From the NCBI GenBank assembly GCA_001029775.1, contig CP011215.1, forward strand, positions 426,303 to 490,302: a stretch of 64,000 bases of DNA, written 5' to 3'. A program made the position numbers and the translations under genes. This document shows, piece after piece, positions 4,555 to 61,896 of the stretch. The DNA comes from Candidatus Campbellbacteria bacterium GW2011_OD1_34_28. Its GTDB lineage: Bacteria; Patescibacteriota; Minisyncoccia; Phycocordibacterales; UBA12079. Under the pieces are notes generated by a model. It was given only the letters and a program-made list of their open reading frames with translations. It was not told where the DNA came from and did no database searches. Every line of letters starts with the position of its first letter. Within the stretch, counting starts at the first letter, position 1.

Positions 4555-4559
4555 AAAAA

Positions 4560-4586
4560 TAGAGCCTAACGGCTCTATTTTTTTAA
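4560..4586 (+). terminator. Rho-independent terminator after rpoD
   Basis: ATAGAGCC TAAC GGCTCTAT followed by TTTTTTT. Confidence 0.75.
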
Positions 4587-4721
4587 TAGTTTATGGTGAT
4601 AAGTAGTAAGTAATAAGGACGAAGCTATCAGCTATAAGCTTCAATTTCTTTATCAACACTTACGCACCCTTTTTTGTTTAAATTAGCCTTAATTATTGGT
4701 ATAATTTGAACAAAGATAAAT

Positions 4722-10700: not shown

Positions 10701-13700
10701 GATAATGAAGATAGTTTTGTTGTTAGAGGAGATGGGGCTGTCGGAATCGGAACAACAACTCCTTCTGCAAAACTCGATATCTATCAAGGTAATTTGAATT
10801 TGGACAACACCACTTTCGCCAACCAATTTGGAGTGATTTCCAAGGGCGGAACAAGGTTTATCCATAATTTCAACTACGGAAACAACGGAACGGTGACGAC
10901 AGTAGGATACAATACTTTCATTGGAGAAAACGCGGGAAACTTGACGATGGGAAGTACGGCGACTTCGGCTAGTCATGCAAGCTACAATACAGGAGTGGGC
11001 TATCAGTCCTTGCAGGCAAACACCACAGGCTATTTCAACACCGCTATTGGTAATCAATCTTTATTATTAAATACCACAGGTTATCACAACACCGCTATTG
11101 GTAATCAATCTTTGCGTGGTAATACCACAGGTAGTTCTAATACCGCTAATGGTTATCAGTCTTTATATTCCAATACAACAGGAGGATTTAATGCTGCCAT
11201 TGGTTATCAATCTTTACGTTCCAACACAACAGGTGGCTATAATATCGCTTTTGGTTATAACGCTGGTCGCTATATTACAGACGGCGTAACAGAAAACACC
11301 ACAGGAGACTACAATATCTTTATCGGACAAGATACCAAAGCCCTTGCCGACGACGACCAAAACGAAATCGTCATCGGCTACAATGCCACAGGGGTAGGAA
11401 GCAACTCGGTTGTTTTGGGTGCCGATACAATCACAAAAACAATTTTGAAGGGGAATGTTGGCATCGGCACCACCTCACCTTTTGCAAAATTATCAGTAAC
11501 AGGAACCGGAACAGGAACTGGCTTGGCTTTTCAAGTTGCCGATTCTGCCAACTCACCAAAATTCACTGTTTTGGATAATGGAAATGTCGGCATTGGGACG
11601 ACGGCGCCAAGCCAGATTTTACATACTTTCAGAAATGATTCAAATACTACAAATAGTATTGAAATTGAGCAAGATGGCTCGGGAGATTCTTCATTAAGAT
11701 TTTTATTAACAGGAGTTACTGGATGGACAATGGGTGTAGATAATTCTGATTCAGATAAATTTAAGATAGGAAATGCACAGTCATTTTCTACAAGTTTTTT
11801 AAACATAGATGGCGCTGGCAACGTCGGTATAGGAACGGCAAATCCAGGGGCGGAACTTGAGATACAAGCAGACGCAAATACAGGCGGAGCTCCTCAATAT
11901 TCACAATTTTGGATTTCTGGAAAGACAGTTAATACAAAACGATTTTATATTGGTATGGATACGAGCACAAATAAAGGTATTCTTTCCGCAGAAACTGGTG
12001 CTGGGGTTTATGCACCTATTGTTATAAATCCATATGGTGGCAATGTTGGCATCGGCACCACAACACCAGGGGCGAAGTTAGATATTAATGGAAATATGAG
12101 AACCTCCATTGGTTCAGGTGGATTTTTGACATTACATGAGACTGATGCTACAAGACAAAATCAGTTGAGTCTGGGAGCTGACGCAAGCGGTGCGTATTTA
12201 GCTTCAACTTATGCGACTGGAGGAGTTGCAGATATTCGTTTTAGTTTAGCAGGTACAGAAAGGGTGCGCATTCAACAGGGTGGTAACGTCGGCATCGGCA
12301 CCACCTCACCTTTTGCAAAATTATCCGTCAAAGGAGCAGGAACAACCACAGGTGTAAACTTCCAAACAACCAATTCGGCTGACACTCCGTTGGTGACTGT
12401 TTTGGATAGTGGGAAGGTGGGTATTGGGACGACGAATCCTGGTACATTATTACAATTAAATATTGATGGTATAGCTAATACACCAAAGGAAGTATTAAGA
12501 GTGTTTAATGGGCTTGCTTATGGTGTTGGTAATGGTTATGGTGAGGCCCAAATAGGCATCGGACACGCTGTATCGGGTGGATATGTCGGTGGTGGAGCTA
12601 CTTCTGAAACTTCAAGTACTAATGGATATCTATCTTTAGGAAATAGGGTATCTAATGTAATGACAGAAGTAGTTAGAATTACTGATGGCAACGTCGGCAT
12701 CGGGACGACGAGTCCGGGAGCAAAGTTAGTTGTAGTGGGAAATGGTACCGCAAGCGTGGCTATAGGGGGTGGAGCATATACAGACTATTCATCTATATCC
12801 TTGAATGGGAGCCTTGCTTCTGGTCAATACAATCTTTTAAGTGGTTATGCTGACAAGACGCTCTATATTAATCGTCCAGCCGGTGCAGATATTTTATTTA
12901 GGGAAAATAATGGTACTGCACAGATGGTCATAAAACAGACAACCGGCAATATCGGCATCGGCACCACATCACCTTTTGCAAAACTATCCATCAAAGGAGC
13001 AGGAACAACCACAGGTGTAAACTTCCAAACAACCAATTCGGCTGATACTCCGCTGGTGACTGTTTTGGATAGTGGGAATGTCGGTATTGGGACGGTGAGT
13101 CCAGGGGCAATGTTGACTATTGTAGGCACTCCTGCTGGAGGTTCCACGAATGTTGGGTTAAATATATATGACAACACGGGGAATGGTGTCGGAATATGGA
13201 CATCAAACGCAGTTGGAAAAATTGGAACACCGAATGCTGTTGATGTTGCATTTATGGCAAACAATAGTGAGAAAATGAGGATATTACAATCGAACGGCAA
13301 CGTCGGCATCGGGACGACGAGTCCAGGAAGTTTGTTGCATTTATATCAAAATACAGTAGGAGTTGGGACTGGTAATGGATTAATGATTGAACAGGATGGA
13401 GCAGGCGACGCTTTAATGCAGTTTTTATTAACGGGGACAGCTAGATGGCAAATGGGCGTTGATAATAGCGATTCTAGAACATTCAAAATTGGAGTTGGTA
13501 GCGATTGGGCAACAAATATTGGCTTGGCAATTACAACTACAGGCAACGTCGGCATCGGCTCAACCGCTCCAAACTACAAACTAACCGTAAACGGAACAGT
13601 AGCTTTCCAAAGTCTTGCTAACAACGGCACTGGCTATTATGTCTGTGCCAACGCTGGAACAGGAGAACTAGCCACATCAACAACAGCCTGCGGAGCATCA

Positions 13701-16571: not shown

Positions 16572-16732
16572 AATAATTTTGACAATTTAATAATTTTTGA
16601 CAACTTTGATAAATAATTGTTTATTAATGTATCCTACCATCGGTAAAAATTCTTGTCAAGACTTTTAAAACAGACATAAAATATTTTCATAAACCCCTTG
16701 ACACATCTTTTTCTTTGTACTAGTATGGGTTT

Positions 16733-19024
16733 ATGACAAAGAATATAACAAAAAGCTTAATAATATTTCTGGCAATTTTTTCCGCGTTTTCTTTTGGTTT
16801 GATTCCAGTAGATATTCAAGCTGCTACTACTCAAATAAATTTTAATGATGAGATTATGTTTGCTCCGAACTGTTTTTGCGGAGCTGATGTAACAGCATAC
16901 AATCTTTACCCCTGTGAAGATCGTAATTGGTGTAACGGTGATACCTCAATAAAGACAGCCAATGTTTCTAATGGAAAATACAAAGTAAAAGTAAATATAG
17001 CTAAATTAACTGATGGACAAAGATTTGAATCGGTGATTTTTACATTTAATGGAGTAAATTATACTATTCCCGATCTTGGAGGAAATGCAGACTCGACTGG
17101 TACGGGGGTATATGAAGTTGGAACATTTAATTTGTCAGGACCAGTTAGTTTTAAAGGAACTCACAAATATGCCAATACTTTTACAGGTCTTTGGTACTCA
17201 GATCCTTATTCAAAAGTAGGTTCTGGTCACGCAATGGAAAGTGTTTCTATTGCCTCTGTTGTTCTTGAAGAAATTGTTACCCCACCTACTTGTACAATGA
17301 GTGCGGTTCCTTCAACAATAACTGCTGGAAATACATCAAATTTGAGATGGACTTCTACAAACGCAACTAGCGCTGTTATCAATCAAGGAATTGGAAATGT
17401 AGCCGTTAATGGAAATAGAAATGTTTCTCCATTCCAAACAACGACTTACACAGGAACATTTACGGGCCCTGGTGGAACAGTAAATTGTCAAACAACCGTG
17501 ACTGTTACAATACCCCAAATGCCTACTTGTACAATGACAGTTAATCCTGCAAATATTACAACTGGACAAAGTGCAACTTTGAGTTGGACTTCTGTAAACG
17601 CAACTAGCGCTGTTATCAATCAAGGAATTGGAAATGTAGCCGTTAATGGAAGCAGATCTGTTTCACCAACTCAAACAACAACTTATACGGGAACATTTAC
17701 TGGTGCTGGTGGAGTAGTAACTTGTCAAAAAACTTTGACTGTTAACAATGTTCCACCACCTCAATTGCCGACTTGTGCAATGAGTGCTGTTCCTCAAACA
17801 ATCTCTGTTGGAGACACATCAAATTTGAGATGGACATCTACAGGCGCAACCAGTGCTGTTATAAACCAAGGAATTGGCACAGTAGCAGTTGATGGAAATA
17901 GAAATGTTTCACCTACTCAAACCACAACATATACAGGAACCTTTACAGGTTCTGGAGGAAGCGTAGTTTGCCAGACAACAATTATTGTTACATCTACACA
18001 CCCTGCGCCAACTTGTACAATGACAGTTACACCAGACAGTATTGTTAACGGAGGAAATGCTACTCTAGCTTGGAATTCTACAAATGCTACATCTGCTTCT
18101 ATAAATCAAGGTATCGGAACTGTGGCTGTTGATGGAAGTCGTGTTGTTTCTCCAAATCAGACCACAACATATACAGGAACATTTACAGGTTCTGGAGGTG
18201 TTGTTACTTGTAGTGCTATGTTGACTGTTTCTGGAACAGGAGGTCCTTCTATAAATATAACAAAAAATGACAATGACAATGGTGATGATACTCAGGCCGT
18301 TGTGTCTGGGGGGACAGCAACCTTTACAGTCGTTGTGACAAATAATGGAACAAGAGATCTTATTGACGTTGTTGTAACAGATGCTTTGGCACCAAATTGT
18401 AACAGAACAGAAAGTCAAACAGCAGGTCTTTATCCGGGGTTAGTATTTGATCCAGGAGAAAGTTTTACTTATACATGTACTGACACAGATATTACATCAG
18501 CTTATACAAATACAATTAGAGTTGATGCTGATGAAATTGGAACATTTTCTATTGTTAATGACACAGATACCAGCAATGTTACCATAACTGGTTCAGGAAA
18601 TACTCCTACATGTTCTATGAGTTTTACACCAAGTAGCATAAATGTTGGAGACAGATCAACTCTTGCTTGGAATTCAACAAATGTTACTACGGCTGTTATT
18701 GATAACGGTGTAGGTAACGTCAATCCAAATGGTTCAACAGATATATTTAGAACATCGTCTGCAACATATACAGGAACATTTACAGGCCCAGGTGGAGTAG
18801 TGACTTGTCAGGCAAACATAACTGTTGGTGGTGGGGGAGGTGGAGGAACAAATACTCCGCGTATCACGCTATCTTCTGGTTCTGGAGTAACTGAACCCGG
18901 ATTCATTTATTTGAGCCAGATTCCTTATACAGGTATTCCTCAGTTCTTGATGACAATGATGGGATTTGTATTTAGATTCGCGTTCTTTGGAGGATTACTG
19001 TTTGCCTTATACAAAATTAAATAA
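16733..19024 (+). CDS. Secreted surface protein with six tandem Ig-like repeats (PTCTM...TYTGTFTG.GG.V.CQ) and C-terminal cell-wall sorting signal (IPYTG + hydrophobic segment + KIK)
   Basis: Signal peptide MTKNITKSLIIFLAIFSAFSF; repeats evident in translation; C-terminus LSQIPYTGIPQFLMTMMGFVFRFAFFGGLLFALYKIK has LPXTG-like architecture; TTGACA-N17-TAGTAT promoter at ~16699-16727. Confidence 0.8.
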   Translation: MTKNITKSLIIFLAIFSAFSFGLIPVDIQAATTQINFNDEIMFAPNCFCGADVTAYNLYPCEDRNWCNGDTSIKTANVSNGKYKVKVNIAKLTDGQRFESVIFTFNGVNYTIPDLGGNADSTGTGVYEVGTFNLSGPVSFKGTHKYANTFTGLWYSDPYSKVGSGHAMESVSIASVVLEEIVTPPTCTMSAVPSTITAGNTSNLRWTSTNATSAVINQGIGNVAVNGNRNVSPFQTTTYTGTFTGPGGTVNCQTTVTVTIPQMPTCTMTVNPANITTGQSATLSWTSVNATSAVINQGIGNVAVNGSRSVSPTQTTTYTGTFTGAGGVVTCQKTLTVNNVPPPQLPTCAMSAVPQTISVGDTSNLRWTSTGATSAVINQGIGTVAVDGNRNVSPTQTTTYTGTFTGSGGSVVCQTTIIVTSTHPAPTCTMTVTPDSIVNGGNATLAWNSTNATSASINQGIGTVAVDGSRVVSPNQTTTYTGTFTGSGGVVTCSAMLTVSGTGGPSINITKNDNDNGDDTQAVVSGGTATFTVVVTNNGTRDLIDVVVTDALAPNCNRTESQTAGLYPGLVFDPGESFTYTCTDTDITSAYTNTIRVDADEIGTFSIVNDTDTSNVTITGSGNTPTCSMSFTPSSINVGDRSTLAWNSTNVTTAVIDNGVGNVNPNGSTDIFRTSSATYTGTFTGPGGVVTCQANITVGGGGGGGTNTPRITLSSGSGVTEPGFIYLSQIPYTGIPQFLMTMMGFVFRFAFFGGLLFALYKIK
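17285..18240 (+). repeat. Four-five tandem ~240 bp coding repeats (Ig-like domains) inside surface protein gene; a further copy at ~18598..18840
   Basis: Repeated PTCTM(S/T)xxP...RWTSTNATSAVINQGIG...TTTYTGTFTG units. Confidence 0.75.
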
Positions 19025-19225: not shown

Positions 19226-19258
19226 AGAAAAGCCCCAACCGAAGTTGGGGCTTTTTCG
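19226..19258. terminator. Bidirectional intrinsic terminator GCCCCAAC CGAA GTTGGGGC + T5
   Basis: 8-bp GC-rich stem, T-run; 3' of minus-strand gene 19281..19625. Confidence 0.75.
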
Positions 19259-19280: not shown

Positions 19281-19625
19281 TTATCCGAGGACCGTGTAGG
19301 CGTCGATGTCGACGTTATTGGTCGAGAGAAAGTCCATGTAGTTCTGCGACAGAACGCCGGCTGCGAGGACGATGCTATCGGCCGAGCTCAGGCCGGCCGC
19401 ACACTTGTCCGGGTTGGCCGAGTTGAACGGGACCTGCTTGATCTTTCCATTGACGTTGATCAGGGCGATACCGGGCGATTTGACGTCGAGCTTGTCGCTG
19501 TGGAACACGATGGCTTTGGCCTTCGGGTTGTCCATGATACTGACCGTCTCCAGGGTTGCCGTGATTCCGAGCGCCACGATTGCCGTCATCACATTCAGGG
19601 GTTTGATCGTTTTCTTGCTGTCCAT
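19281..19625 (-). CDS. Small secreted hypothetical protein (114 aa, signal peptide) in ~58% GC cassette with SD GGAGG and gggaTTGACAat promoter
   Basis: ATG at 19625 preceded by ACGGAGGAAACGCC; hydrophobic N-terminus KPLNVMTAIVALGITATL; promoter TTGACA-N16-TAATAT at ~19690-19725 (minus); strong GC shift relative to flanks. Confidence 0.65.
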   Translation of the reverse strand: MDSKKTIKPLNVMTAIVALGITATLETVSIMDNPKAKAIVFHSDKLDVKSPGIALINVNGKIKQVPFNSANPDKCAAGLSSADSIVLAAGVLSQNYMDFLSTNNVDIDAYTVLG

Positions 19626-19735
19626 TGGCGTTTCCTCCGTAAAAAAAAGGGCTGTTTGCACTGAGAATCAAGATGACTCAAAGCACGTTGACTGACAAAC
19701 ATATTAACAGACTAAAAAATATTGTCAATCCCAAC

Positions 19736-27459: not shown

Positions 27460-27580
27460 GTTCTGTTGTCGGGGATTGGCGTCCCTCGGAATAAAAGGGT
27501 TACCTTGTTTGGAAAGCATCCTGCCAATTTTTGGTTCAAGGATGCAACGCCCAACCCGCGGTTTTCCGCGGGTTTTTTAT
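27460..27580 (+). ncRNA. Candidate structured small RNA, copy 1 (own extended -10 TGTTATACT, conserved 5' GGGGAUUGGCGUCCCUCG, variable hairpin, conserved 3' domain, intrinsic terminator CCCGCGG-UUUU-CCGCGGG-U6)
   Basis: Promoter at 27445..27453; 5' and 3' ends pair (UUGGCGU / ACGCCCAA); terminator 27555..27578; no plausible CDS. Confidence 0.6.
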
Positions 27581-27628: not shown

Positions 27629-27760
27629 GTGACTTGCTTGCATGGAGAAAAGGGGATTGGCGTCCCTCGAAATGTTTGGGTCCGCACATTTAGAAAGTAT
27701 CCTGCCTTAATTGGTTCAAGGATGCAACGCCCAACCCGCGGTTTTCCGCGGGTTTTTTTA
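27629..27760 (+). ncRNA. Candidate structured small RNA, copy 2 (tandem paralogue; variable hairpin AAAUGU...ACAUUU replaces AAGG-GUUA-CCUU of copy 1)
   Basis: Promoter TGTTATACC at 27614..27622; identical 5' 18 nt and 3' ~50 nt plus identical terminator at 27735..27759; compensatory base changes in the variable hairpin. Confidence 0.6.
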
Positions 27761-27813
27761 TTGTCTTTGTTCTCTACTTGATACTTACTACTTACTACTT
27801 TATACTTATTTTT

Positions 27814-44251: not shown

Positions 44252-44412
44252 GTGAAAACAATCAAAGGTGGTATCGCTGATTTGAAAGGAATTAAATATA
44301 TTTTAAATCCAGAAACATCTTTTGTTTCATTTTCGGCAGACAACAAAGACCTTGTATCAATTTCTAATAAAAAAATTTTACGAAGGAGAAAATTGGGAAG
44401 GAGAGTACGATG
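44252..44412 (+). CDS. Small basic peptide (52 aa, GTG start, C-terminal RRRKLGRRVR) with SD AAGGAGG, stop overlapping next gene start (ATGA)
   Basis: SD at 44241..44247; translational coupling geometry with 44410..44727. Confidence 0.4.
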
Positions 44413-44727
44413 AAAGAAAAAATTACTTTAAAAAGAATTGTGGCATCTTTTGTTGCAGGATTGTTGTGGGGAGTCTTTCTTTTTCAGGATATCTCCAAAG
44501 GAGATTCTGGTTATGAGTATGAAGGGACAGGAATTCTTTTTGTTTCAATTGGTTTTTGCTGTTTGTTTTTTGTACCGATAATTATTTCATCTTCTTTTCA
44601 GATTGAAATTTACAAATTGATTTTGGCAGGCGTTGCTGCGTATCTCATTATTGGACTTGTCGCTATTTCAGAAATGCGACACCGATGGGGAGGTAGTGAC
44701 AGAATAACTTTTATGCCTAATGTGTAA
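44410..44727 (+). CDS. Small membrane protein (105 aa, 3 TM) with SD GGAAGGAG
   Basis: ATG at 44410; hydrophobic helices; terminator follows. Confidence 0.6.
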   Translation: MKEKITLKRIVASFVAGLLWGVFLFQDISKGDSGYEYEGTGILFVSIGFCCLFFVPIIISSSFQIEIYKLILAGVAAYLIIGLVAISEMRHRWGGSDRITFMPNV

Positions 44728-52831: not shown

Positions 52832-53992
52832 ATGGCAAAGTCACTGGTAGGAATTCAGACATTGGAGTCTCTCGCTGGCTGGAAAATGATCGCCGAGAGG
52901 ACTAACGAGACCGAGGAGACTGTCCAGACCGGTCAGACCAAACCCGCAGAGTTCCGGATTTATCGGAACGATGACTTGGGGGTCGAGATTCATGTCCGGC
53001 GTTCGCTGGTCAAGGAAGGACTCGATTTCCTGCCTGGGATGGTAAAGGATGTCGAGACAGGAAAAGACCTGTGGAGTTTTTTTCAGGAGCAGTCCAAAGG
53101 ACTCGGACACCTGCTCGCCATTAACGGCGAGGTGGTCATCGGCCTGGAGGAGTGGGGCGATCTGAAGAAGGTCATCCCCGTCGCCGATCTGCGCAAGCAG
53201 AAGACCGTCGTCGTTGATGGCGTGTCCAAAATTGTCGGTGGTCGTGGCGTTCTCGCTACGGTCGATCTCAAACACTCGGTTGCCGAGGCGCTTTCTACCG
53301 ATCAGGGCAGGAGCATCAAGGCCAACATCACCGACGCCGAGCGCGCGGTGATGAGAAAACTTTCTGATGCCCGCAAGGCCAGTGAGGAGCGTGAGCGATT
53401 GGCACGGGAAACCGCGCGTCGCGAGCGGATCGCCAAGATCAAGAGCCGGCAACAGATTTCCGGCATGGTCGTGGAGAACGGCAGGGGTTCGCGTTGGGCG
53501 ATTCCTGTCACAGAAGACGAATGGATGTCTTTTGGGACCGACGACGGCATGGTTGCCATCGTTGCCGGTTTCGGTGAAGACGGCAAGCCCATCGTTCCCG
53601 AAGACGGAGTGGTGGAGGCATTTTTCATTCAGTATCGCAAGGGCGGTGGTGGACGGCCGGAGAAGAAGGCACAGGTGAAAATCCGTCTTCGTGGCTACGA
53701 ACAGGCCGAGCCCGTGAAGGAAGCATCCGTCTCCGCACCGACGCTCGTCAAACTGGAAACCGTCTTTATCGAGGTTTCCAAGGATCAGGCGAAATCCCTC
53801 GGCATCGATTCCGGATTTCAGGAAGTCAGTCTTACGGATGCAGAGGGGATTTCCACTCTGCGGAAGGCAGGTCTCAACAGCGGTGCGCTCGTCGCGATCT
53901 CCGCCACCGACGGATCCGATCGGATTCAGGTGGAGAAGTTCGTTGACGGCCAGACGCAGACCTTGGGCCTCTTTAATCCGATCACGATGTGA
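52832..53992 (+). CDS. Hypothetical protein (386 aa) in ~58% GC cassette with TTGACA promoter, AGGAGGTG SD and hairpin terminator; two globular halves joined by basic coiled-coil (ERERLARETARRERIAKIKSRQQ)
   Basis: SD 52817..52824; promoter gtaTTGACAaat...TAGTAT at ~52762..52795; terminator CCCGTCGTTGC...GCAACGACGGG T6 at 54013..54062. Confidence 0.7.
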   Translation: MAKSLVGIQTLESLAGWKMIAERTNETEETVQTGQTKPAEFRIYRNDDLGVEIHVRRSLVKEGLDFLPGMVKDVETGKDLWSFFQEQSKGLGHLLAINGEVVIGLEEWGDLKKVIPVADLRKQKTVVVDGVSKIVGGRGVLATVDLKHSVAEALSTDQGRSIKANITDAERAVMRKLSDARKASEERERLARETARRERIAKIKSRQQISGMVVENGRGSRWAIPVTEDEWMSFGTDDGMVAIVAGFGEDGKPIVPEDGVVEAFFIQYRKGGGGRPEKKAQVKIRLRGYEQAEPVKEASVSAPTLVKLETVFIEVSKDQAKSLGIDSGFQEVSLTDAEGISTLRKAGLNSGALVAISATDGSDRIQVEKFVDGQTQTLGLFNPITM

Positions 53993-54146: not shown

Positions 54147-54362
54147 ATGCCAGCAACAGAAAAAGATTGGAGAAATTGGCAAGATATCAATGGTAATTCG
54201 GAAGGACTAAGTCCAACCGAATTAATGAACATTCGTTATCGTCACGGCAGAGCCGAGGCTGTAAGGGCAATCACCTGTCCACCGGGGAGAGACCCTCAGA
54301 CATGGGAAGATCAGATTCAAAATTTTTTGGTGTCCAAGGAATTCGGACATCGCGTTCATTAA
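54147..54362 (+). CDS. Small hypothetical protein (71 aa) with GAGGAGGTG SD, own TTGACA-N16-TAGTAT promoter and terminator GGCGGAGTGTC ACAA GACACTCCGCC T7
   Basis: SD at 54133..54141; promoter at ~54071..54099; terminator 54376..54408. Confidence 0.6.
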   Translation: MPATEKDWRNWQDINGNSEGLSPTELMNIRYRHGRAEAVRAITCPPGRDPQTWEDQIQNFLVSKEFGHRVH

Positions 54363-54494: not shown

Positions 54495-56738
54495 ATGTAT
54501 CTAAAATCGTTAGAAATTTCTGGATTTAAATCGTTTGCAAAAAAAGATTCTTTGGATTTTACATCGCCAATTTCTGCGATTGTTGGTCCAAATGGGTCAG
54601 GCAAATCAAATGTCGCCGAAGCTTTTCGGTTTGTTTTGGGTGAACAATCTTTAAAATCTTTGCGAGGGAAAAGAGGAGAAGATTTAATATTTTCTGGATC
54701 AAAAAATGAAAGATCTCTGAACAGAGCCGGTGTAAAAGTGATCTTTGATAATATCACAAGATTTTTGAATATTGATTTTGATGAAGTCTCAATTGAGAGA
54801 GTGGTATTCAAAGACGGTGTAAACCAATATTTTATAAATGGAACACAAGTTCGTTTGAAAGATATTATTGAACTGTTGGCAGGGGCAAATATTGGTTCTT
54901 CCGGACATCATATTATTTCACAAGGAGAAGCAGACAGAATTTTGAGTGTAAATATAAAAGAAAGAAGAGAGATGATAGAAGATGCTCTGGGACTTAAAAT
55001 CTACCAATACAAAATAAGTGAGAGTGAAAAGAAATTGGATAAGGTAGAAGAAAATCTTCAGTCGGTAGAGTCTTTGCGAAGAGAAATAAAACCACATTTG
55101 AGATTTTTAGAAAAACAGGTAAAGAAAATAGAACAATCGGTAGAATTGCGAGACAAGTTAAGAGATTTATATAAAGAATATTTTAAAAGAGAGGATGTAT
55201 ATTTGAAATATCAAAAAAACTATATCAGAGAACACAAAAATCCCCTTGAAGAAAAGATGCGCGTTTTAAACGAGGATCTGGCAGATGCAAAAGAAATTTT
55301 GAGAAAAGAATCAAACAGTTCTCCAAAAGATAATCAGGAATTGATAGAGATTGAAGAGAGATTGAGTGAAAAAAGAAAAGAAAGAAGTAACTTAACGAGA
55401 GAAATCGGACAGTTAGAGGGTATGATTGTTTTTGAAGAAAGAAGAATTGTAAGGGAAGAATCTAGACAAAAAGAAGAAGACGACAGAGTGATAAAGTTTA
55501 AAGATGTAAAAAATTTCCTGTTTGATTTGCAAGACAGTTTTGAAGAATACAAAAATATTTCTATAACAGATGCACTGGATAAAATAAAACACTCAATCTC
55601 TTTTTTCTTGAGTCAAAATTCAAAAACAGCAGAAAATGTTCAGATTGATAAAAGCGAAATAGATAAATTAAAAAGAGAAAAGAACGAAATGGAGAGAAAA
55701 TTGGAAGTAGTTGTTCGCGAAGAGAAAGAATTGGCAGAGACCTTCGAGAATATAAAAAAACAATTTGAAAAAGATAAAGATTCTAGTCGTATTGCGGAAT
55801 TAAAAATATTTGAGATCAATGCTAAAAAGGCGGAAGCAGAAGCAAGACTTAATTCTATAAAAGAGCTTGAATATAAGGTGGGTATGGAGGATGAAAATTT
55901 CAAGAGGGAATTGAACGAGGCATTTGTTTTAGCAGGTAGAGAATCTACTCAATTTTTTGGTTTTCAGATCACCGAAGAAGAAGTGATGAGAGAAGAAAGA
56001 AAATTACAAATGGAGAGAGGCAGGGAAATTGAAAAGATTAAAATTAAATTGGAAGATATGGGAGCAGGATCCAGTGAAGAAGTTTTGAAAGAATATGAGG
56101 ATGTAAAAAATAGGGAAGAATTTTTGACAAGAGAAATAGAGGATTTGGAAAAATCTGCGATTTCTTTGAAAGATTTGATTATGGAATTGAAAGAAAAATT
56201 GAATGTGGAATTTAGAGATGGAACGGAAAAAATAAACAAACAATTTAGTGAATTTTTCAGTTTGATGTTTGGTGGAGGAAGGGCCGAGCTGCTTATTGTT
56301 AAAAATAAAAAGAGAAGGAGAAATGATTTTGGTTTAGACTTGGAAGGAGAAACTGCTGATATGGAAGACGAAGAAGAAACAGAAGAGGGAATTGATATCA
56401 ATGTTTCTTTGCCGAATAAAAAGACCAAAGGTTTGCAGATGCTCTCAGGTGGAGAAAGATCTCTTACATCTATTGCACTTTTATTTGCGATGTCACAAAT
56501 TAAACCACCTCCTTTTATCATTTTGGACGAAACAGATGCAGCATTGGATGAAGCAAATTCTCGTCGTTACGGAGATATGATAGAAAGTCTCTCAAAATAT
56601 TCTCAGTTGATTCTGATTACTCACAATAGAGAAACAATGTCTCGCGCAGGAATATTGTATGGGATTACAATGGGTATGGATGGGGTGTCACGATTACTGT
56701 CAGTTAAATTAGAAGAGGCGGTGAAAGTAGCAAAATAA
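54495..56738 (+). CDS. smc: SMC-family chromosome-associated ATPase (short, 747 aa; Walker A GPNGSGKSN, signature LSGGERSLTSIALLFAM, D-loop ILDETDAALDE)
   Basis: N- and C-terminal ABC-ATPase halves separated by long coiled-coil; shorter than canonical SMC so could be an SbcC/RecN-like paralogue. Confidence 0.75.
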   Translation: MYLKSLEISGFKSFAKKDSLDFTSPISAIVGPNGSGKSNVAEAFRFVLGEQSLKSLRGKRGEDLIFSGSKNERSLNRAGVKVIFDNITRFLNIDFDEVSIERVVFKDGVNQYFINGTQVRLKDIIELLAGANIGSSGHHIISQGEADRILSVNIKERREMIEDALGLKIYQYKISESEKKLDKVEENLQSVESLRREIKPHLRFLEKQVKKIEQSVELRDKLRDLYKEYFKREDVYLKYQKNYIREHKNPLEEKMRVLNEDLADAKEILRKESNSSPKDNQELIEIEERLSEKRKERSNLTREIGQLEGMIVFEERRIVREESRQKEEDDRVIKFKDVKNFLFDLQDSFEEYKNISITDALDKIKHSISFFLSQNSKTAENVQIDKSEIDKLKREKNEMERKLEVVVREEKELAETFENIKKQFEKDKDSSRIAELKIFEINAKKAEAEARLNSIKELEYKVGMEDENFKRELNEAFVLAGRESTQFFGFQITEEEVMREERKLQMERGREIEKIKIKLEDMGAGSSEEVLKEYEDVKNREEFLTREIEDLEKSAISLKDLIMELKEKLNVEFRDGTEKINKQFSEFFSLMFGGGRAELLIVKNKKRRRNDFGLDLEGETADMEDEEETEEGIDINVSLPNKKTKGLQMLSGGERSLTSIALLFAMSQIKPPPFIILDETDAALDEANSRRYGDMIESLSKYSQLILITHNRETMSRAGILYGITMGMDGVSRLLSVKLEEAVKVAK

Positions 56739-56819
56739 GAGCACTTTGTCTCGTATAAACTCCTCAGCTCAGCAGACCTAAAAGATTTATCTTTTAGGTC
56801 TGCTTTCACTTTACGTCGT

Positions 56820-56948
56820 TTATAATTCCAAAATTAAAGAATTTCTTCGTCGACTAAGAAAAAAACTTCCTCATCGTAATCGTATTTAAAATACGACTCG
56901 GAAGTTTTTTTCTTGTCTTCTCGAACTTCATTTAATTTTGGAATTATT
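56820..56948. mobile_element. MITE-like element, copy E (near-perfect 130 bp hairpin, centre CGTATTTAAAATACG)
   Basis: TIR ATTCCAAAATTAAAGAATTTCTTCGTCG / CTCGAACTTCATTTAATTTTGGAAT; arms complementary over ~45 bp. Confidence 0.7.
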
Positions 56949-56962
56949 TTTTTGTTCGTGAG

Positions 56963-58975
56963 TTAGTTTACGATTTCAAAATCAATCGTCCTTTTTTCCA
57001 AATCAACACCTATCAATTTTATTTTTACTTTGTCGCCCAATGTGTATTTTTTTCCACTGCGTTCTCCAACAATACGATAATTTTTTGGATCAATATTATA
57101 GTGATCATCTTTCAATGTTCTAACACTTACCAATCCTTCGGCTTTTGTTTTTTGATCTTGAACATATACACCCCAATCAACAACGCTGGTTATCATACCT
57201 TCAAACTCTTCTCCAACCAGCTTTGACATATATTCAGCATATTTGTATTTTACAGAATCTCTTTCTGCTTCCATTGCAGAAATTTCTTGTGTGGTAGAAA
57301 TGGCCGACAATTCTTCAAATCGTCCAATTTCTTTTTCGGAAACTTCTTCACCCGCCAAATATCTTTTTAACAAACGATGTACCATTACATCTGGGTATCT
57401 TCGGATAGGGGAAGTAAAGTGTGTATAAAATTTGAAAGCCAAACCATAGTGTCCAATATTTTTTGTGCTGTAAATTGCTTTTGCCATTGATCGAACAACT
57501 ACTTTGGCGATCAGATCTTCTTCATCGGTTCCTCTTATTTCATCCAACAAATCGTTTAAATCTTGTGAATCAACATTTCCGTTTCCGTCTGTCTTCAAAG
57601 AGTATCCAATTTTTTTTAAATACTCTGTAAGCTCTTTTATTGCATCCGGTTTTGGTTTGTCGTGAATTCTATAAACAAAAGGCTTGTTTTTTCCTAGTCT
57701 GTTCACATATTCGGTAACCTCTCTGTTTGCAAGAAGCATAAAATCTTCAATCAATTCGTTTGTTTCCAATGTCTCTTTTTCGTAAATCTCTATAGGAAAA
57801 CCTTTTTCGTCCAATTTAAATTTTACTTCGCTTCCTCCAAAAGATATTGCTCCGTTTTTTGTTCTTCTCTTTCTTTTTATCAAAGCCATTTTGTTCAGGG
57901 TATTCAATTCATTATAAAAAAGACCTTCTCCTTTGTTTAAAATTTCTTGTGCTTCAATATAATTAAATCTTTTATCCGAATTTATGATTGTTTCTCCAAA
58001 CCACCTGTTTAGTACTTCACATTTATCATTCAATATAAAGATAGCCGAAAAAGCCAGCTTGTCTTCGTTTGGATTAAGAGAACACAAATCATTTGAGAGA
58101 ACCTCGGGAAGCATTGGAATTGTTCTGTCCACCAAATAAATAGAAGTGGCTCTTTTTACAGCTTCTTGATCAATTGGACTACCTTCTCTCACATAGTGAG
58201 AAACATCGGCGATGTGTATTCCGACTTCGTATGTTCCGTCTCCCAGATCTTTGAAAGACAATGCATCATCAAAATCTTTGGCGTCAAAAGGGTCAATTGT
58301 AAAAGTTGTTGTGTTCCTAAAATCCCAACTAGAAATTGGTCCATCAGGGCGAGAGATTCTTCTTTTCATTTCTTCTTCAAAATCTGCTTTTGCATTTTTT
58401 TTGATTATTTCTGCTTCTTTCTCAACTTCAGGAGGGAAAGAAGGGACAAATCCTTTTTCATAAATAATAGATTCCATTTCTGTGTTGTGATCTCCTTTTT
58501 CTCCAAGAACTTTTGTTACTTCTCCTTGCAGGTTGATCCAATCTTTTATTTTGACAAGAACTTTTTGATTTGATTTTATATTTTTTGTTTCTTCGTTTGG
58601 AAGAATAAAAATAGCTTTGTATATTTTTCTATCGTCTGGTTGGAAAGAGATTATTCCATTGTCATTTAAAATAGTACCAACAAATTGCTCGCGGTTTCTT
58701 CTGATGATTGATTTTACTGATCCCTTTATACGGCCTTCGCTTTTTTTGTTACTAATAGAAAATTGGACGATATCTCTGTTTAATGCAGTGTTTAAATCGC
58801 TTGTTGGTATTTTGATATCCTCGGCGAACTTTTCTGTTCTAATATATCCGTCCCCCTTGGCACTAATCAAAATTTGACCCTCAAATATTTCTGACGAGAA
58901 TTTTTCTTTTATGTTAGATTTTTTTCTAGGGCGAAAATTTGAATCTTTGTTTCTTTTGTGTTTTTTATTTTTCAT
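56963..58975 (-). CDS. rnr: Ribonuclease R (RNB family 3'-5' exoribonuclease) with basic N-terminus and C-terminal S1 domain
   Basis: RNB domain motifs (DPFDAKDFDDALS, HFTSPIRRYPD) and S1 domain; start placed at MKNKKHK (ORF-track start 58993). Confidence 0.88.
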   Translation of the reverse strand: MKNKKHKRNKDSNFRPRKKSNIKEKFSSEIFEGQILISAKGDGYIRTEKFAEDIKIPTSDLNTALNRDIVQFSISNKKSEGRIKGSVKSIIRRNREQFVGTILNDNGIISFQPDDRKIYKAIFILPNEETKNIKSNQKVLVKIKDWINLQGEVTKVLGEKGDHNTEMESIIYEKGFVPSFPPEVEKEAEIIKKNAKADFEEEMKRRISRPDGPISSWDFRNTTTFTIDPFDAKDFDDALSFKDLGDGTYEVGIHIADVSHYVREGSPIDQEAVKRATSIYLVDRTIPMLPEVLSNDLCSLNPNEDKLAFSAIFILNDKCEVLNRWFGETIINSDKRFNYIEAQEILNKGEGLFYNELNTLNKMALIKRKRRTKNGAISFGGSEVKFKLDEKGFPIEIYEKETLETNELIEDFMLLANREVTEYVNRLGKNKPFVYRIHDKPKPDAIKELTEYLKKIGYSLKTDGNGNVDSQDLNDLLDEIRGTDEEDLIAKVVVRSMAKAIYSTKNIGHYGLAFKFYTHFTSPIRRYPDVMVHRLLKRYLAGEEVSEKEIGRFEELSAISTTQEISAMEAERDSVKYKYAEYMSKLVGEEFEGMITSVVDWGVYVQDQKTKAEGLVSVRTLKDDHYNIDPKNYRIVGERSGKKYTLGDKVKIKLIGVDLEKRTIDFEIVN

Positions 58976-59132
58976 TTTTATAAATAGTAACATTTTTTAT
59001 TATTTTAGGATATTTTAGAAACTTGATAATTTCAATAGGGCAGTATTCTAAGGGCTTGACAAGTAGGTCTATTTTTTGATATGGTTTTTATAGGAAATTC
59101 TTTTCATTTTCAATAACAAAGGAGGTAACGAG

Positions 59133-60197
59133 ATGAAAAAGAGAATTATTCTCTTAGTTTTGTTGGGTCTTTTTTCGGTTTCTACAGCAATGGCGAGTAC
59201 ATTGGTGGTGGAGCAGATTACTCAGCCGTTGAGTGGTCTCGCACCGGAAGGAGCGACGAGGATCCCTTTCTCAAAAGTGCGTTTTCGTGCACAGGACGGC
59301 AAGGTCGCCCTTTATGGCGTCTATGTTGAGAAAACGGGAATGGCCGGACAGGTCTTCTCTGGAGTTGCATTACTTCGTAATGGGGTTCAAATGGGAACGA
59401 CCGTCACCAGTTTTGGTGCGGACAATCGGGCAATGTTAATGGCAGATTCACCGTTTGAAATCGCCGACGGTTCCTCTTACGACTTAACTGTCGTGGGGAA
59501 TATGCGCGACGATTTGTCGGGAGATGATGGTAAAACCATCGGTATTGCCATCGTCGGTGTCTGGACGACAGCGACTGTGCAGGGTTTTGTTCTAATCGAA
59601 GGAACTCACCGGACGGCGAGTTCCGACTATGTCATTGGCGCTGTCAACGCAACAGCTGGTGAGGACAATCCGTCAGCTGGATCAACTGCTTACCCCGGAG
59701 AGACAAAAATTTTCTCTTCGGTAAGTTTGATCGCTTCGTCCGTTGAGGACGAGGTTCTCAAATCAGTGATGGTGAAGGCGTCGGGGAACGCAACCAAAAG
59801 TGATTACAACAGTGTGGTGCTTTTGGTCGGTGGGACAAACTATCCGATGACTGTTTTGCCGGACGGCAGGTACTACGCAGGCGGGATCAATAAAACCATC
59901 ACGAACACCGCTAAAACGAAAGTATCGATTTCTGCAAATGTGGTCGGAGGCGTTGGTAAAACAATCGCCTTTGATATCGTAGAATCAACTGATGTTGAAT
60001 TGGCCGGTGCAATTACCGGATTCGGTACAACGCCGATCGGATCAGGACCTTCGTTCGGTTCGTTCCCTTGGTTCAAGGGAACGACGACGAGCATCGTTCA
60101 GGCACCAACACCGCCTCCTCCTTTACCACCACCGACTGCGAAACAACGCAAGGCGGCAGCAATGACGGCCATTCGGTCGCTGTTGCAGGACAAGTAG
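59133..60197 (+). CDS. Secreted hypothetical protein (354 aa; signal peptide, two related beta-rich domains, PTPPPPLPPPT C-terminal linker) in ~55% GC cassette with AAGGAGGT SD and 20-bp hairpin terminator
   Basis: SD 59119..59126; signal peptide MKKRIILLVLLGLFSVSTAMAS; terminator AAGAGCAGATTTTGTGCG..CGCACAAAATCTGCTCTT at 60201..60246. Confidence 0.65.
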   Translation: MKKRIILLVLLGLFSVSTAMASTLVVEQITQPLSGLAPEGATRIPFSKVRFRAQDGKVALYGVYVEKTGMAGQVFSGVALLRNGVQMGTTVTSFGADNRAMLMADSPFEIADGSSYDLTVVGNMRDDLSGDDGKTIGIAIVGVWTTATVQGFVLIEGTHRTASSDYVIGAVNATAGEDNPSAGSTAYPGETKIFSSVSLIASSVEDEVLKSVMVKASGNATKSDYNSVVLLVGGTNYPMTVLPDGRYYAGGINKTITNTAKTKVSISANVVGGVGKTIAFDIVESTDVELAGAITGFGTTPIGSGPSFGSFPWFKGTTTSIVQAPTPPPPLPPPTAKQRKAAAMTAIRSLLQDK

Positions 60198-60310
60198 CAA
60201 AGAGCAGATTTTGTGCGTACGCGCACAAAATCTGCTCTTTTTTGTTTGTTAAAAATACTTTAAACAAAAAAAAGTAATGTGGATAACTTGTTTTGTAATG
60301 TGTCTTCTAG

Positions 60311-60346
60311 TGGTATATAATGTATGACAAGTGGGAAGTAGTGGGA
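60311..60346 (+). promoter_or_regulatory. mraZ promoter (extended -10 TGGTATATAAT) with downstream MraZ-box direct repeats GTGGGAAGTAGTGGGAC
   Basis: Two GTGGG repeats at 10-bp periodicity at 60331..60346 plus GTGG half-sites upstream, consistent with known MraZ operator architecture. Confidence 0.5.
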
Positions 60347-60373
60347 CAATTATAAAAATAACTTTATAAAACA

Positions 60374-60808
60374 ATGTTGATTGGCGAATACACACACTCA
60401 ATAGATCCAAAAAAAAGGGTGTCTTTGCCTGCAAAATTTCGTAAAGAAGTTGGAAAGAAAGTAATAATGACTCACGGCTTGGATAATTGTTTGTCCATTT
60501 ACACACTTAAAGAGTGGGAAAAAATTTCTGAAAAATTGTCTGGTTTATCTATGGGGCAAGCTGATCAAAGAAGTTTTAACCGTTTTATGTTGGCGGGTGC
60601 GGTAGAAACGGAGGTTGATTCTGTTGGTAGAATTTTGATCCCTGATTTTTTGAAAGATTACGCAAAGTTAAAAACAAAAGTTGTTTTGACTGGGGTTTAC
60701 AATCATATAGAAATTTGGGATGAGAAGATGTGGAGAATTTACAAACAGAAAATTGAAAATCAGGCTGACGCATTGGCTGAAAAATTGGGAGAGATAGGGG
60801 TCATTTAA
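60374..60808 (+). CDS. mraZ: Transcriptional regulator MraZ
   Basis: Duplicated DxxxR-type halves (SIDPKKRVSLPAKFR; VDSVGRILIPDFL). Confidence 0.92.
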   Translation: MLIGEYTHSIDPKKRVSLPAKFRKEVGKKVIMTHGLDNCLSIYTLKEWEKISEKLSGLSMGQADQRSFNRFMLAGAVETEVDSVGRILIPDFLKDYAKLKTKVVLTGVYNHIEIWDEKMWRIYKQKIENQADALAEKLGEIGVI

Positions 60809-60954
60809 AAACTAAAAGTTTTTAAATGACAATGTCAAATTCCCAATTTCTAATTTCCAATAAAAGTGAAAATAATCAAATTAAACAAAATGATATTTTA
60901 GAAATTAGAAATTAGAAATTAGGAATTAAAACTTTGTTAAACAAATAAACAGGA

Positions 60955-61896
60955 ATGACGAACAAAAATTCAGAAATAAAGAAAAAAGTTGAAACAAAGC
61001 ACATACCTGTTCTTTTAAATGAAGTTATAGAGGGTTTAAATCTTCACAAAGGAGATGCTGTTTTTGACGGGACTTTGGGCGGAGGAGGATATTTTGGAAA
61101 ACTTTGCGAAGTTGTTGGTCCAGAGGGAACAGCAATCGCTGTTGATCAAGATTTAGGGGCAATCAAAAGAGTGGAAGAAAAAAGCGATTTTAGATGTCAA
61201 ACACACTTGATAAATGAAAATTTTAGAAATTTGGACAAAGTTTTGATATCTCTAAACCAAAAGCAGGTACAAGGCGTCGTCTTTGATTTGGGATTAAGTT
61301 CGGATCAATTTGAAATATCGGGTAGAGGATTTTCTTTCAAAAAAAATGAACCATTACTGATGACTTTCAGTGAAAAACCAAACGAAGCGAGATTTACAGC
61401 AAGAGATATTGTAAATACTTGGGATGAAGAAAATATCGCCGATATCTTATACGGATATGGAGAAGAAATGTTTTCAAGAAGGGTAGCAAAAAAAATTGTT
61501 GAAGCGAGAGAAATTAAACCCATAAATACTACGGACGATTTGGTTTCGGTTATAGAATCTGCATTTCCGGTTTGGTATAGAAAGACCAGAAAGACACATT
61601 TCGCGACAAAAACTTTTCAAGCCTTGAGAATAACGGTAAATGATGAAATAGAATCTTTGAAAGATGGTTTACAAAAAGGTTTTCATTCTCTTTCAGAAGG
61701 CGGAAGAATGGCGGTCATTTCTTTTCATAGTTTGGAAGACAGAATCGTAAAAAATTTTATGAAAGAAAAACAACTTGCGAATGAAGGAGAGATCAAAACC
61801 AAAAAACCAATTACACCGACTGATGAAGAAATAAAAAATAACCCAAGATCAAGAAGTGCAAAATTGAGAATAATAGAAAAAATTAATAATCAATAA
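60955..61896 (+). CDS. rsmH: 16S rRNA (cytosine1402-N4)-methyltransferase RsmH
   Basis: HIPVLLNEVIEGL, DGTLGGGGY, QALRITVNDE motifs. Confidence 0.93.
   Translation: MTNKNSEIKKKVETKHIPVLLNEVIEGLNLHKGDAVFDGTLGGGGYFGKLCEVVGPEGTAIAVDQDLGAIKRVEEKSDFRCQTHLINENFRNLDKVLISLNQKQVQGVVFDLGLSSDQFEISGRGFSFKKNEPLLMTFSEKPNEARFTARDIVNTWDEENIADILYGYGEEMFSRRVAKKIVEAREIKPINTTDDLVSVIESAFPVWYRKTRKTHFATKTFQALRITVNDEIESLKDGLQKGFHSLSEGGRMAVISFHSLEDRIVKNFMKEKQLANEGEIKTKKPITPTDEEIKNNPRSRSAKLRIIEKINNQ

Follow-up and report, generated by a model that had tools for sequence, protein, structure and literature searches.

How did a GC-rich gene come to lie between rnr and mraZ in an AT-rich bacterium, and why is it still GC-rich? 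We addressed this question in a stretch of 64,000 nucleotides (nt) of Candidatus Campbellbacteria bacterium GW2011_OD1_34_28 (contig CP011215.1, positions 426,303 to 490,302), and this whole 64-kb stretch is called the window below. The host is an AT-rich, ultra-small bacterium of the Parcubacteria/Paceibacterota in the Candidate Phyla Radiation (CPR). The window contains rpoC-like, ribosomal-protein, dnaK, topA, smc and rnr genes. The dcw cluster begins within it, with mraZ, rsmH, an ftsL-like gene and a penicillin-binding protein gene. We named the open reading frame (ORF) in question gene X and established its anatomy, coding status, fold and family relationship, as well as the polarity of its insertion, its age and its compositional drift. 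With a probability of about 0.65, the ancestor of a small Paceibacterota clade acquired X long ago from a GC-richer donor, into a permissive rnr/mraZ spacer. Horizontal gene transfer into Patescibacteria is documented in general (PMC12455944). Our verdict is that X, which encodes an uncharacterised surface module, was acquired horizontally long ago and is nothing out of the ordinary.

The composition of X differs from its surroundings down to the silent sites. The window as a whole has 36.2% GC, and the GC profile rises from ~0.30 before the gene to 0.45–0.575 across the X ORF and falls to ~0.31 beyond its terminator. The original prediction, which was made from the sequence alone, gave 55% GC. 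This figure is slightly high for the whole ORF (50.7%; 200-bp windows over X peak at 0.53–0.575), but the composition is indeed atypical and remains so at silent sites. The GC content at third codon positions (GC3) is 0.51 in X, compared with 0.25–0.35 in rnr, mraZ, rsmH, smc and topA, 0.20–0.31 in the ribosomal-protein genes and ~0.26–0.27 in host genes. At four-fold degenerate sites, G+C is 0.47 in X, against 0.11 in ribosomal-protein and 0.23 in housekeeping genes. The silent-site excess comprises both C and G, extends to every codon class and does not favor particular synonymous codons. The orthologues of X have a GC content of 0.49–0.54 and a GC3 of 0.51–0.57 in genomes of 35–38% GC. According to the original prediction, relatives with a same-site homologue resembling the host in composition would refute it; the same-site homologues turned out to be equally GC-rich. 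We also considered the amino-acid composition as a cause of the high GC. The ratio of Gly, Ala, Arg and Pro to Phe, Tyr, Met, Ile, Asn and Lys (GARP/FYMINK) of X is 1.27, which is typical for its protein family, and this family is GARP-rich everywhere. Amino-acid composition accounts for a part of the GC content at the first and second codon positions, and not for GC3. Expression-linked codon bias was rejected too, since dnaK and the genes for ribosomal proteins favor A and T at their silent sites. Because the ribosomal-protein genes are even more AT-rich, translational selection is excluded for X.

We then investigated the direction of change at these sites. Among the window, L001 and L010, the third-position changes in X comprise 96 GC-to-AT and 51 AT-to-GC changes (p = 2.6e-4), while those in the flanks comprise 46 and 61, respectively. 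When polarized with L004, the GC-to-AT:AT-to-GC counts are 56:37 in X and 84:202 in the flanks (Fisher p = 1.5e-7), although L004 is a saturated outgroup and the polarization is biased to AT-to-GC in AT-rich genes, and these counts serve as a relative comparison only. The GC-to-AT excess in X over the flanks indicates that X is not at compositional equilibrium and is still ameliorating. X bears the marks of an ameliorating gene: foreign silent sites, absence in sister lineages, and substitutions toward the host composition. The GC content of X is best explained as a decaying relic of its origin rather than as a functional signal.

We compared the insertion site over 80 metagenomic loci anchored on MraZ. 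All X orthologues are found at the same site, in the order rnr (−), X (+), mraZ (+), and X is present only in the group of the window and in the L004/L016 group. Six more distant relatives (L021, L059, L060, L071, L072 and L076), whose RNase R is 40–55% identical to that of the window (L021 by partial match only), have an empty rnr–mraZ spacer of 235–295 bp. The insertion into the divergent rnr/mraZ spacer and the spacer comparison put forward in the original prediction are thereby borne out, with the spacer empty in these six relatives and filled with other cargo in three more. The L013 spacer has a 95-aa GIY-YIG-like ORF (4626–4913, −), the L017 spacer has two small hydrophobic ORFs (2385–3218), and the L025 spacer has a 143-aa Nudix-like ORF (4307–4738). 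All of these are of host-like composition, and the two named types were assigned by motif. The rnr–mraZ spacer is a recurrent gene-gain site. The RNase R and RsmH proteins of the window group are 73–76% identical to those of the L004/L016 group, 65–68% identical to those of L013 and L017, and 53–60% identical to the rest. The two X-bearing groups are thus mutually closest, and the presence of X maps to a single gain. The promoter, Shine–Dalgarno (SD) sequence and terminator of L004 are recognizably orthologous to those of X, which also indicates a single origin. The synonymous divergence (dS) of the flanking genes across the split between the window and L004 lineages is 1.3–2.3. These findings point to a single old insertion that predates a split with saturated dS.

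X is a real protein-coding gene, because 354 codons stay open at 50% GC, the ratio of non-synonymous to synonymous substitution rates (dN/dS) against orthologues is 0.13–0.20, and 418 remote homologues exist. A chance or non-coding feature is ruled out. X is maintained by purifying selection, and its protein diverges 3–5 times faster than its neighbors (for example, 84% identity where the neighbors have 94–100%, and 54% where they have 64–89%). Only four close relatives (91, 84, 84 and 53% identity; 354–359 aa) are found among five billion clustered proteins, and one genome among 185,579 GTDB species representatives carries X. In the L012 strain, the flanking genes are 99–100% identical at the protein level and ~98–99% at the DNA level to those of the window, whereas X is only 91% identical. 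The differences in X cluster at 59300–59700 (63 differences) and 60000–60100 (17 differences), forming patches of ~20% divergence, and X differs by 49 synonymous and 31 non-synonymous codon changes. Within these patches, the window and L012 differ as much as either of them differs from L001 or L010, indicating homologous recombination with diverged alleles and not programmed mutagenesis. This allele mosaicism fits an exposed surface protein under diversifying pressure. Between the window and L012, the smc–rnr spacer (56700–57000) and the mraZ–rsmH spacer (60800–61000) are also replaced or rearranged, with 181 and 56 differing columns, respectively (substitutions plus gaps). These two spacers hold copies of dispersed ~55–70-nt repeats (families D7, D10 and D11; 19030, 25990, 35905 and 56822).

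The features of the locus are collected in Table 1. X is a self-contained, monocistronic gene. In L004, whose X is 53% identical, the promoter block is retained (TTGACA...TGATATAGT). The perfect TTGACA −35 element is found at native genes too, indicating that the X promoter is of the host type; its use at X is predicted from the sequence. The SD is kept in the orthologues (AGGAGGGAGG in L004 and GGGAGGT in L010). The terminator has the makings of a rho-independent one, a GC-containing stem-loop with a U-run right after the stop codon. Its predicted folding energy is −30.2 kcal/mol (z = −6.7; none of 200 shuffles was as stable), and L004 and L010 retain the hairpin despite altered sequence. The original prediction was right about the SD and about a hairpin terminator, the stem of which measures 19 bp instead of the 20 bp given there. 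It was also right that the signals differ from those of the host as far as translation is concerned (see below), but not for the promoter. No Rfam family matched the region of X at gathering thresholds and no tRNA was found there. Downstream of the terminator of X, the mraZ block (ATGTGGATAAC...GTGGTATATAAT...AAGTGGGAAGTAGTGGGA) is shared by lineages with and without X, so that the insertion has an intact, outward-divergent promoter on either side and is kept insulated from the dcw operon. In this block, GTGG[G/A/T] units spaced ~10 nt apart flank the TATAAT −10 element. Equivalents are present in L001, L004, L010, L013, L017, L059, L060 and L076, and the conservation reaches lineages with RNase R only ~55% identical. 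The GTGG repeats are probably a MraZ operator array, and presumably correspond to the MraZ boxes of published MraZ operators.

Table 1. Gene X and the adjoining signals in the window (positions are those of the window).
Feature	Position	Strand	Remarks
Sigma-70-type promoter-like site	59056..59085	+	TTGACA-18-TATGGT, extended −10 TG; 10/12 consensus matches; 48 nt 5' of the ATG
Shine–Dalgarno AAGGAGGT	59118..59125	+	7 nt before the ATG of X
Coding sequence X	59133..60197	+	354 aa plus stop; GC 0.507, GC3 0.51
Putative Sec-type signal peptide	59133..59195	+	Residues 1-21; MKKR, hydrophobic core, AMA/S; read by inspection; pattern shared by orthologues
Ig-like beta-sandwich domain 1	59196..59636	+	Residues 22-168; AlphaFold2, hhalign against domain 2, Foldseek
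Ig-like beta-sandwich domain 2 with conserved C-terminal extension	59637..60098	+	Residues 169-322; AlphaFold2, hhalign
Proline-rich linker PTPPPPLPPPT	60105..60137	+	Residues 325-335; kept in all orthologues
Basic C-terminal helix AKQRKAAAMTAIRSLLQDK	60138..60194	+	Net charge +4; residues 336-354, of which 336-353 are modelled as a helix
Intrinsic terminator	60199..60240	+	Perfect 19-bp stem, 4-nt loop, then T-run TTTTTTGTTTGTT; directly after the X stop
mraZ native promoter/operator block	60278..60350	+	TTGTAA-17-TATAAT at 60293-60321, GTGG[GA] repeats; 3' of the insertion, intact

We then investigated the X protein. By eye, its N-terminus reads as a signal peptide (MKKR-IILLVLLGLFSV-STAMA/S, with MKKRIILLVLLGLFSVSTAMA/ST as the cleavage context; the slash marks the predicted cut), and Sec cleavage and a surface location are predicted. 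The signal segment forms a low-confidence helix in the AlphaFold2 model. A model from the five close sequences only was unusable, with a predicted local distance difference test score (pLDDT) of 49.5, and a 35-sequence family alignment was required. The resulting model (pLDDT 90.1; predicted template modelling score 0.70) consists of the signal helix, two immunoglobulin (Ig)-like beta-sandwiches, the linker and the C-terminal helix. The two domains are homologous. An alignment of their sub-alignments with hhalign gave a probability of 95.5% and E = 1.5e-8 over 101 columns, and a 35-nt DNA repeat (59520–59554 and 59946–59980, 426 nt apart) that encodes GKTIGIAIV and GKTIAFDIV marks the duplication; BLASTP between the two halves showed no similarity. 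Thus, the duplication check suggested in the original prediction supports its two related beta-rich segments, and the secreted protein with a linker and a basic tail that it described agrees with the signal pattern, linker and tail charge in Table 1. The Foldseek search that it proposed returned, from the PDB, solely generic tandem Ig-like proteins (integrin alpha legs, Cna/Cnm, CfaB pilin and antigen-binding fragments of antibodies) with template modelling (TM) scores of 0.13–0.29, from which no function is transferable. The matches in the viral BFVD library were equally generic. Sequence searches with X in Pfam, PHROGs, NCBIfam and the PDB gave nothing significant (no Pfam match at E ≤ 1), nor did a PDB search with the family profile, and the window contains no paralogue of X.

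The basic tail is retained in four of the five orthologues, while L010 has an AT-rich, hydrophobic-basic tail instead. The X sequence has no LPXTG motif and no C-terminal hydrophobic segment (mean hydrophobicity of the tail, −0.27). Two identities of the tail were tried and rejected. Against a hidden Markov model built from 29 instances of the N-terminal AIxSLLQSFGAD motif of the large homologues described below, the tail with its ..AIRSLLQ.. reached −2.7 bits (E = 1.2). Nor does the tail look like a PBP5-type amphipathic membrane anchor, the hydrophobic moment of 0.07–0.25 being no better than that of shuffles. The architecture, the export signal and the evolutionary behavior of X suggest an adhesion or envelope function.

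X is a stand-alone, cut-down copy of an uncharacterised Parcubacterial wall-protein module. An exhaustive HMMER search with a profile of the X orthologues against 1.84 billion cluster representatives found 418 homologues at E ≤ 1e-3, including 60 at E ≤ 1e-30. In most of them, residues 22–321 of X align with residues ~180–480 of proteins of 1150–1230 aa (profile E = 1e-30 to 1e-51; BLASTP identity 31–37%). X itself has 354 aa and ends 19 residues past its Pro-rich linker. The large homologues consist of a signal peptide, a helical motif (LTxxQIxAIxSLLQSFGAD), PG_binding_1, the X-like module and ~700 further residues. PG_binding_1 (PF01471) is matched by P0007, P0008, P0011 and P0016, three of which pass the cutoff, with P0008 just below it (21.6 versus 23 bits). 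These proteins are named ‘peptidoglycan-binding protein’ in Candidatus Vogelbacteria and Candidatus Parcubacteria; the match in Candidatus Terrybacteria is named only ‘hypothetical protein’. The module itself is matched by no Pfam or NCBIfam model. Shorter forms of 351–571 aa are among the matches, and Pro-rich linkers flank the module copies of P0005. A fish tenascin-X-like protein among the matches was rejected as a low-complexity artefact. Word-indexed profile searches yielded no useful additional homologues or names, and our literature search turned up neither work on this family nor accounts of how CPR bacteria use the SD.

We then examined translation signals over the whole window. In a strict scan for an SD core within 25 nt upstream of the chosen start codons, ~35 genes of host composition lack the core (the ribosomal-protein genes, dnaK, smc, rnr and mraZ included), and the sole borderline case among host-composition genes is an AGGA at −4 before rsmH. 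On the other hand, all four GC-rich genes of the window, namely X, 52832–53992, 54147–54362 and 19281–19628, have a strong SD. A looser scan allowing internal starts was noisy and still significant (p = 1e-5), and we trusted the strict scan. The pairing of an SD with a high GC3 is repeated in L004 and L010, where it is also seen in a gene encoding LysM and DPBB_1 domains (RlpA-like) downstream of murE, where the dcw segment ends and past the end of the window (L004 14582–15223 and L010 14216–14833; GC3 0.47–0.50). This LysM-DPBB gene belongs to the same class of atypical envelope genes. The gene at 44410–44727 is of host composition and has an SD and a terminator; it may be an older, fully ameliorated acquisition. 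Some native promoters end 7 nt before the ATG (16698–16726 before 16733, for example), which suggests leaderless mRNAs.

The other GC-rich units share the layout of X. Between topA and smc, the gene at 52832–53992 (+) encodes 386 aa (GC 0.57, GC3 0.68) with a charged, coiled-coil-like middle and no signal peptide, and is followed by a GC-richer 71-aa ORF (54147–54362, +). Each of the two has its own TTGACA promoter, SD (AGGAGGT and GAGGAGGT, respectively) and hairpin terminator. They are syntenic in L010 (390 and 70 aa), and neither has a match in Pfam, PHROG, NCBIfam or viral contigs. The unit at 19281–19628 (−) codes for a protein of 115 aa that starts with a hydrophobic or signal segment. 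Its promoter reads TTGACA-17-TAATAT, its SD is GGAGGA, and a hairpin terminator follows at ~19230–19258. Its four-fold-site G+C of 0.85 is the most extreme in the window, and it seems to have been acquired more recently than X. SD-led acquired genes for envelope and secreted proteins might be a translational class of their own that can be tuned separately, comprising X, the 386-aa and 71-aa genes, the 115-aa protein and the LysM-DPBB protein of the relatives, for which the anti-SD is mainly kept. Native genes would then have dispensed with the SD, the SD would allow structured GC-rich foreign mRNAs to be expressed, and X would be one member of a graded series of amelioration, with GC decaying and the SD retained. 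We regard this idea as unlikely.

The window also contains the host's own large surface proteins, both with host-like silent sites. One is a 3300-aa protein (4722–14624, +) with 21 GNVGIGTT-type repeat copies, and the other is a 763-aa secreted protein (16733–19024, +) with five ~80-aa repeats and a C-terminal hydrophobic anchor. Two tandem GC-rich repeats of ~108 nt (27471–27578 and 27652–27758; 76–100% identical) lie shortly before the gene at 27778, and each of them ends in the same terminator hairpin, CCCGCGG TTTT CCGCGGG, and a T-run. They could be a duplicated small RNA or leader; Rfam gave only sub-threshold, terminator-driven matches for them.

The original prediction called X a cassette, and it may be asked whether X is a recent mobile unit in the rnr–mraZ spacer, be it integron-like, borne by an insertion sequence (IS) or a miniature inverted-repeat transposable element (MITE), or a phage moron. 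X is indeed a compact unit of atypical composition with its own promoter, SD and terminator, other lineages carry different cargo in this spacer, and the window has three more GC-rich single-gene units of the same layout. However, every member of the clade has X at the same site with orthologous junctions, across a flanking dS of 1.3–2.3, and X is carried by a single GTDB species representative. There is no attC-like site; the hairpin at the 3' end forms a perfect palindrome, followed by a T-run. No direct or inverted repeats beyond AT-rich chance matches were found at 58950–60400 or in the whole window, no integrase, transposase or recombinase was noticed near X in the ORF listings, and tblastn of X gave no match in 50,697 phage records and 72,556 plasmids. 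The cassette in the sense of a discrete or recent mobile unit is thus largely refuted, and we consider it highly improbable. Vertical inheritance of a Parcubacterial gene, with the empty spacers as deletions, would agree with a protein family that is Parcubacteria-wide and with the ease with which intergenic spacers of reduced genomes lose genes. It is nevertheless very unlikely, since it needs independent clean losses in all outgroups, several of which have different spacer genes, and leaves both a silent-site GC twice that of the host and its ongoing decay unexplained. Moreover, X sits on a long branch, and none of the 418 homologues is closely related to it. A further possibility is that X is the target of a diversity-generating retroelement (DGR) or another programmed mutator. 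CPR genomes are rich in DGRs, and patches of ~20% divergence between strains with 98–99% identical flanks might be expected from one. No part of X has a template repeat in the window, however, and no ORF of reverse-transcriptase size was noticed beside X when the ORF listing was viewed without a domain scan. Synonymous changes outnumber non-synonymous ones, with all four bases involved, and the patches match the inter-allele distance, which is the signature of homologous recombination. For this window, the DGR explanation is refuted, and we give it almost no weight.

The main rival for the composition of X is that its high GC is actively maintained, either by GC-biased gene conversion (gBGC) in a recombination hotspot or by selection on mRNA stability or structure in an SD-led class of genes. 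Several observations weigh against an old acquisition from a GC-richer donor, and the first two of them speak for maintenance. The GC3 of X is alike (0.51–0.57) across lineages with saturated dS, which requires either an ancestral GC3 of ~0.7–0.9 or a force that slows the decay. Family members are richer in GC3 than most of their neighbors in four of five other genomes, and frequent exchange or gBGC may therefore contribute. The homologue and its adjacent genes have a GC3 of 0.80 and ~0.66 in L092, 0.47 and 0.22–0.44 in L095, 0.50 and 0.34/0.50 in L096, and 0.45 and 0.35–0.41 in L097. The nearest non-orthologous homologues of X are 33–37% identical and about equidistant, and point to no particular donor; in a neighbor-joining tree, a long branch leads to the X clade, many large homologues are at about the same distance from it, and its neighbors P0139 and P0083 are only ~28% identical. 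An SD is absent from the five large homologues that we inspected and was thus not obviously brought in along with X, although P0139, a short form on a 50%-GC contig with the signal peptide directly before the module, has one. Finally, the tail shows no significant amphipathicity and L010 has a different one in its place, which makes its proposed role uncertain. Maintenance would also agree with the recombination mosaic of X between near-identical strains, with the coincidence of SD and high GC3 in three genomes, and with the equilibrium GC3 of X, which we estimated from its substitution counts at ~0.35, somewhat above ~0.27 in the host. On the other hand, X is off equilibrium, with GC-to-AT changes exceeding AT-to-GC changes ~2:1 while the flanks are balanced. 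The excess of G+C extends over all codon classes, and the 763-aa and 3300-aa surface proteins and the ribosomal-protein genes of the host are AT-rich at silent sites. Published effects of gBGC in bacteria amount to a few GC3 points, not 25. We consider active maintenance unlikely, though worth keeping in mind, and prefer the old acquisition from a GC-richer donor. As a rough inference, GC3 was ~0.7–0.9 when X was gained. This is compatible with donors such as the Parcubacterium of L092 (genome GC 0.62, gene GC3 0.80) or L098 (genome GC 0.57, gene GC3 0.63), in which homologues are present.

These observations suggest how X might work. X would be transcribed from its own host-type TTGACA promoter and translated via a strong SD that native genes here do not use. 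After export by Sec and cleavage behind Ala21, the protein would either stay on display at the cell envelope or be released from it, its two Ig-like domains carried by a polyproline stalk. Electrostatic retention of the protein, or its docking to a partner, is probably the task of the basic C-terminal helix, and the strong terminator would insulate the downstream mraZ/dcw promoter. The module normally stands just after the peptidoglycan-binding domain of ~1,170-aa Parcubacterial proteins, which are presumed to be wall or surface proteins, and its fast evolution and inter-strain recombination would be those of an exposed surface protein. The envelopes of CPR bacteria (Patescibacteria) mediate host-cell attachment and are almost wholly uncharacterised. 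X offers a compact mature protein of 333 residues with a high-confidence model of a Parcubacteria-wide surface module that lacks a Pfam model, and is thus a handle for structural and binding studies. Its locus is a clean, datable gene gain in a streamlined genome, with an empty outgroup site, one gain, ongoing amelioration and allele mosaicism. A restriction of the SD to acquired GC-rich genes, if true genome-wide, would bear on how foreign genes are expressed in SD-poor bacteria. None of these findings overturns current understanding.

X can be compared with several known systems. An integron cassette is a promoterless ORF with an attC in an array beside intI, whereas X has its own promoter-like site and no array. 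IS elements, MITEs and transposons have terminal inverted repeats, target-site duplications and a transposase, none of which is found at the X junctions. Phage morons and genomic islets are, like X, self-contained units of atypical composition between undisturbed residents and encode a surface-exposed accessory protein. X differs from the morons in lying outside a prophage, in having a host-type promoter and no phage homologue, and in being ancient and fixed in its clade rather than strain-variable. Sortase-anchored surface proteins of Gram-positive bacteria have a C-terminal LPXTG motif, a hydrophobic segment and a basic tail, the first two of which X lacks. The Cna/Cnm adhesins (2f68, 8jl8), the CfaB pilin (3f84) and integrin alpha legs have two consecutive Ig-like sandwiches as in X (Foldseek E ~1e-6). 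This likeness is at the level of the fold only (TM 0.13–0.29, 8–14% identity), and ligand binding is not transferable. The isopeptide-bonded domains of Cna need conserved Lys and Asn, but across the X family neither residue has a column with a conservation of ≥90%. Compared with the large Parcubacterial peptidoglycan-binding proteins (for example, MBI5138636.1 of Vogelbacteria, 1224 aa; MBX4210665.1 of Parcubacteria; P0008; P0011), X lacks the N-terminal LTxxQIxAIxSLLQSFGAD motif, PG_binding_1 and the ~700-aa C-terminal domains. In X, the putative signal peptide leads straight into the module, a basic helix closes the protein at its C-terminus, and the mRNA is SD-led. With these proteins it shares the tandem homologous beta-sandwich module, a predicted secreted nature and, as in P0005, Pro-rich linkers that bound the module.

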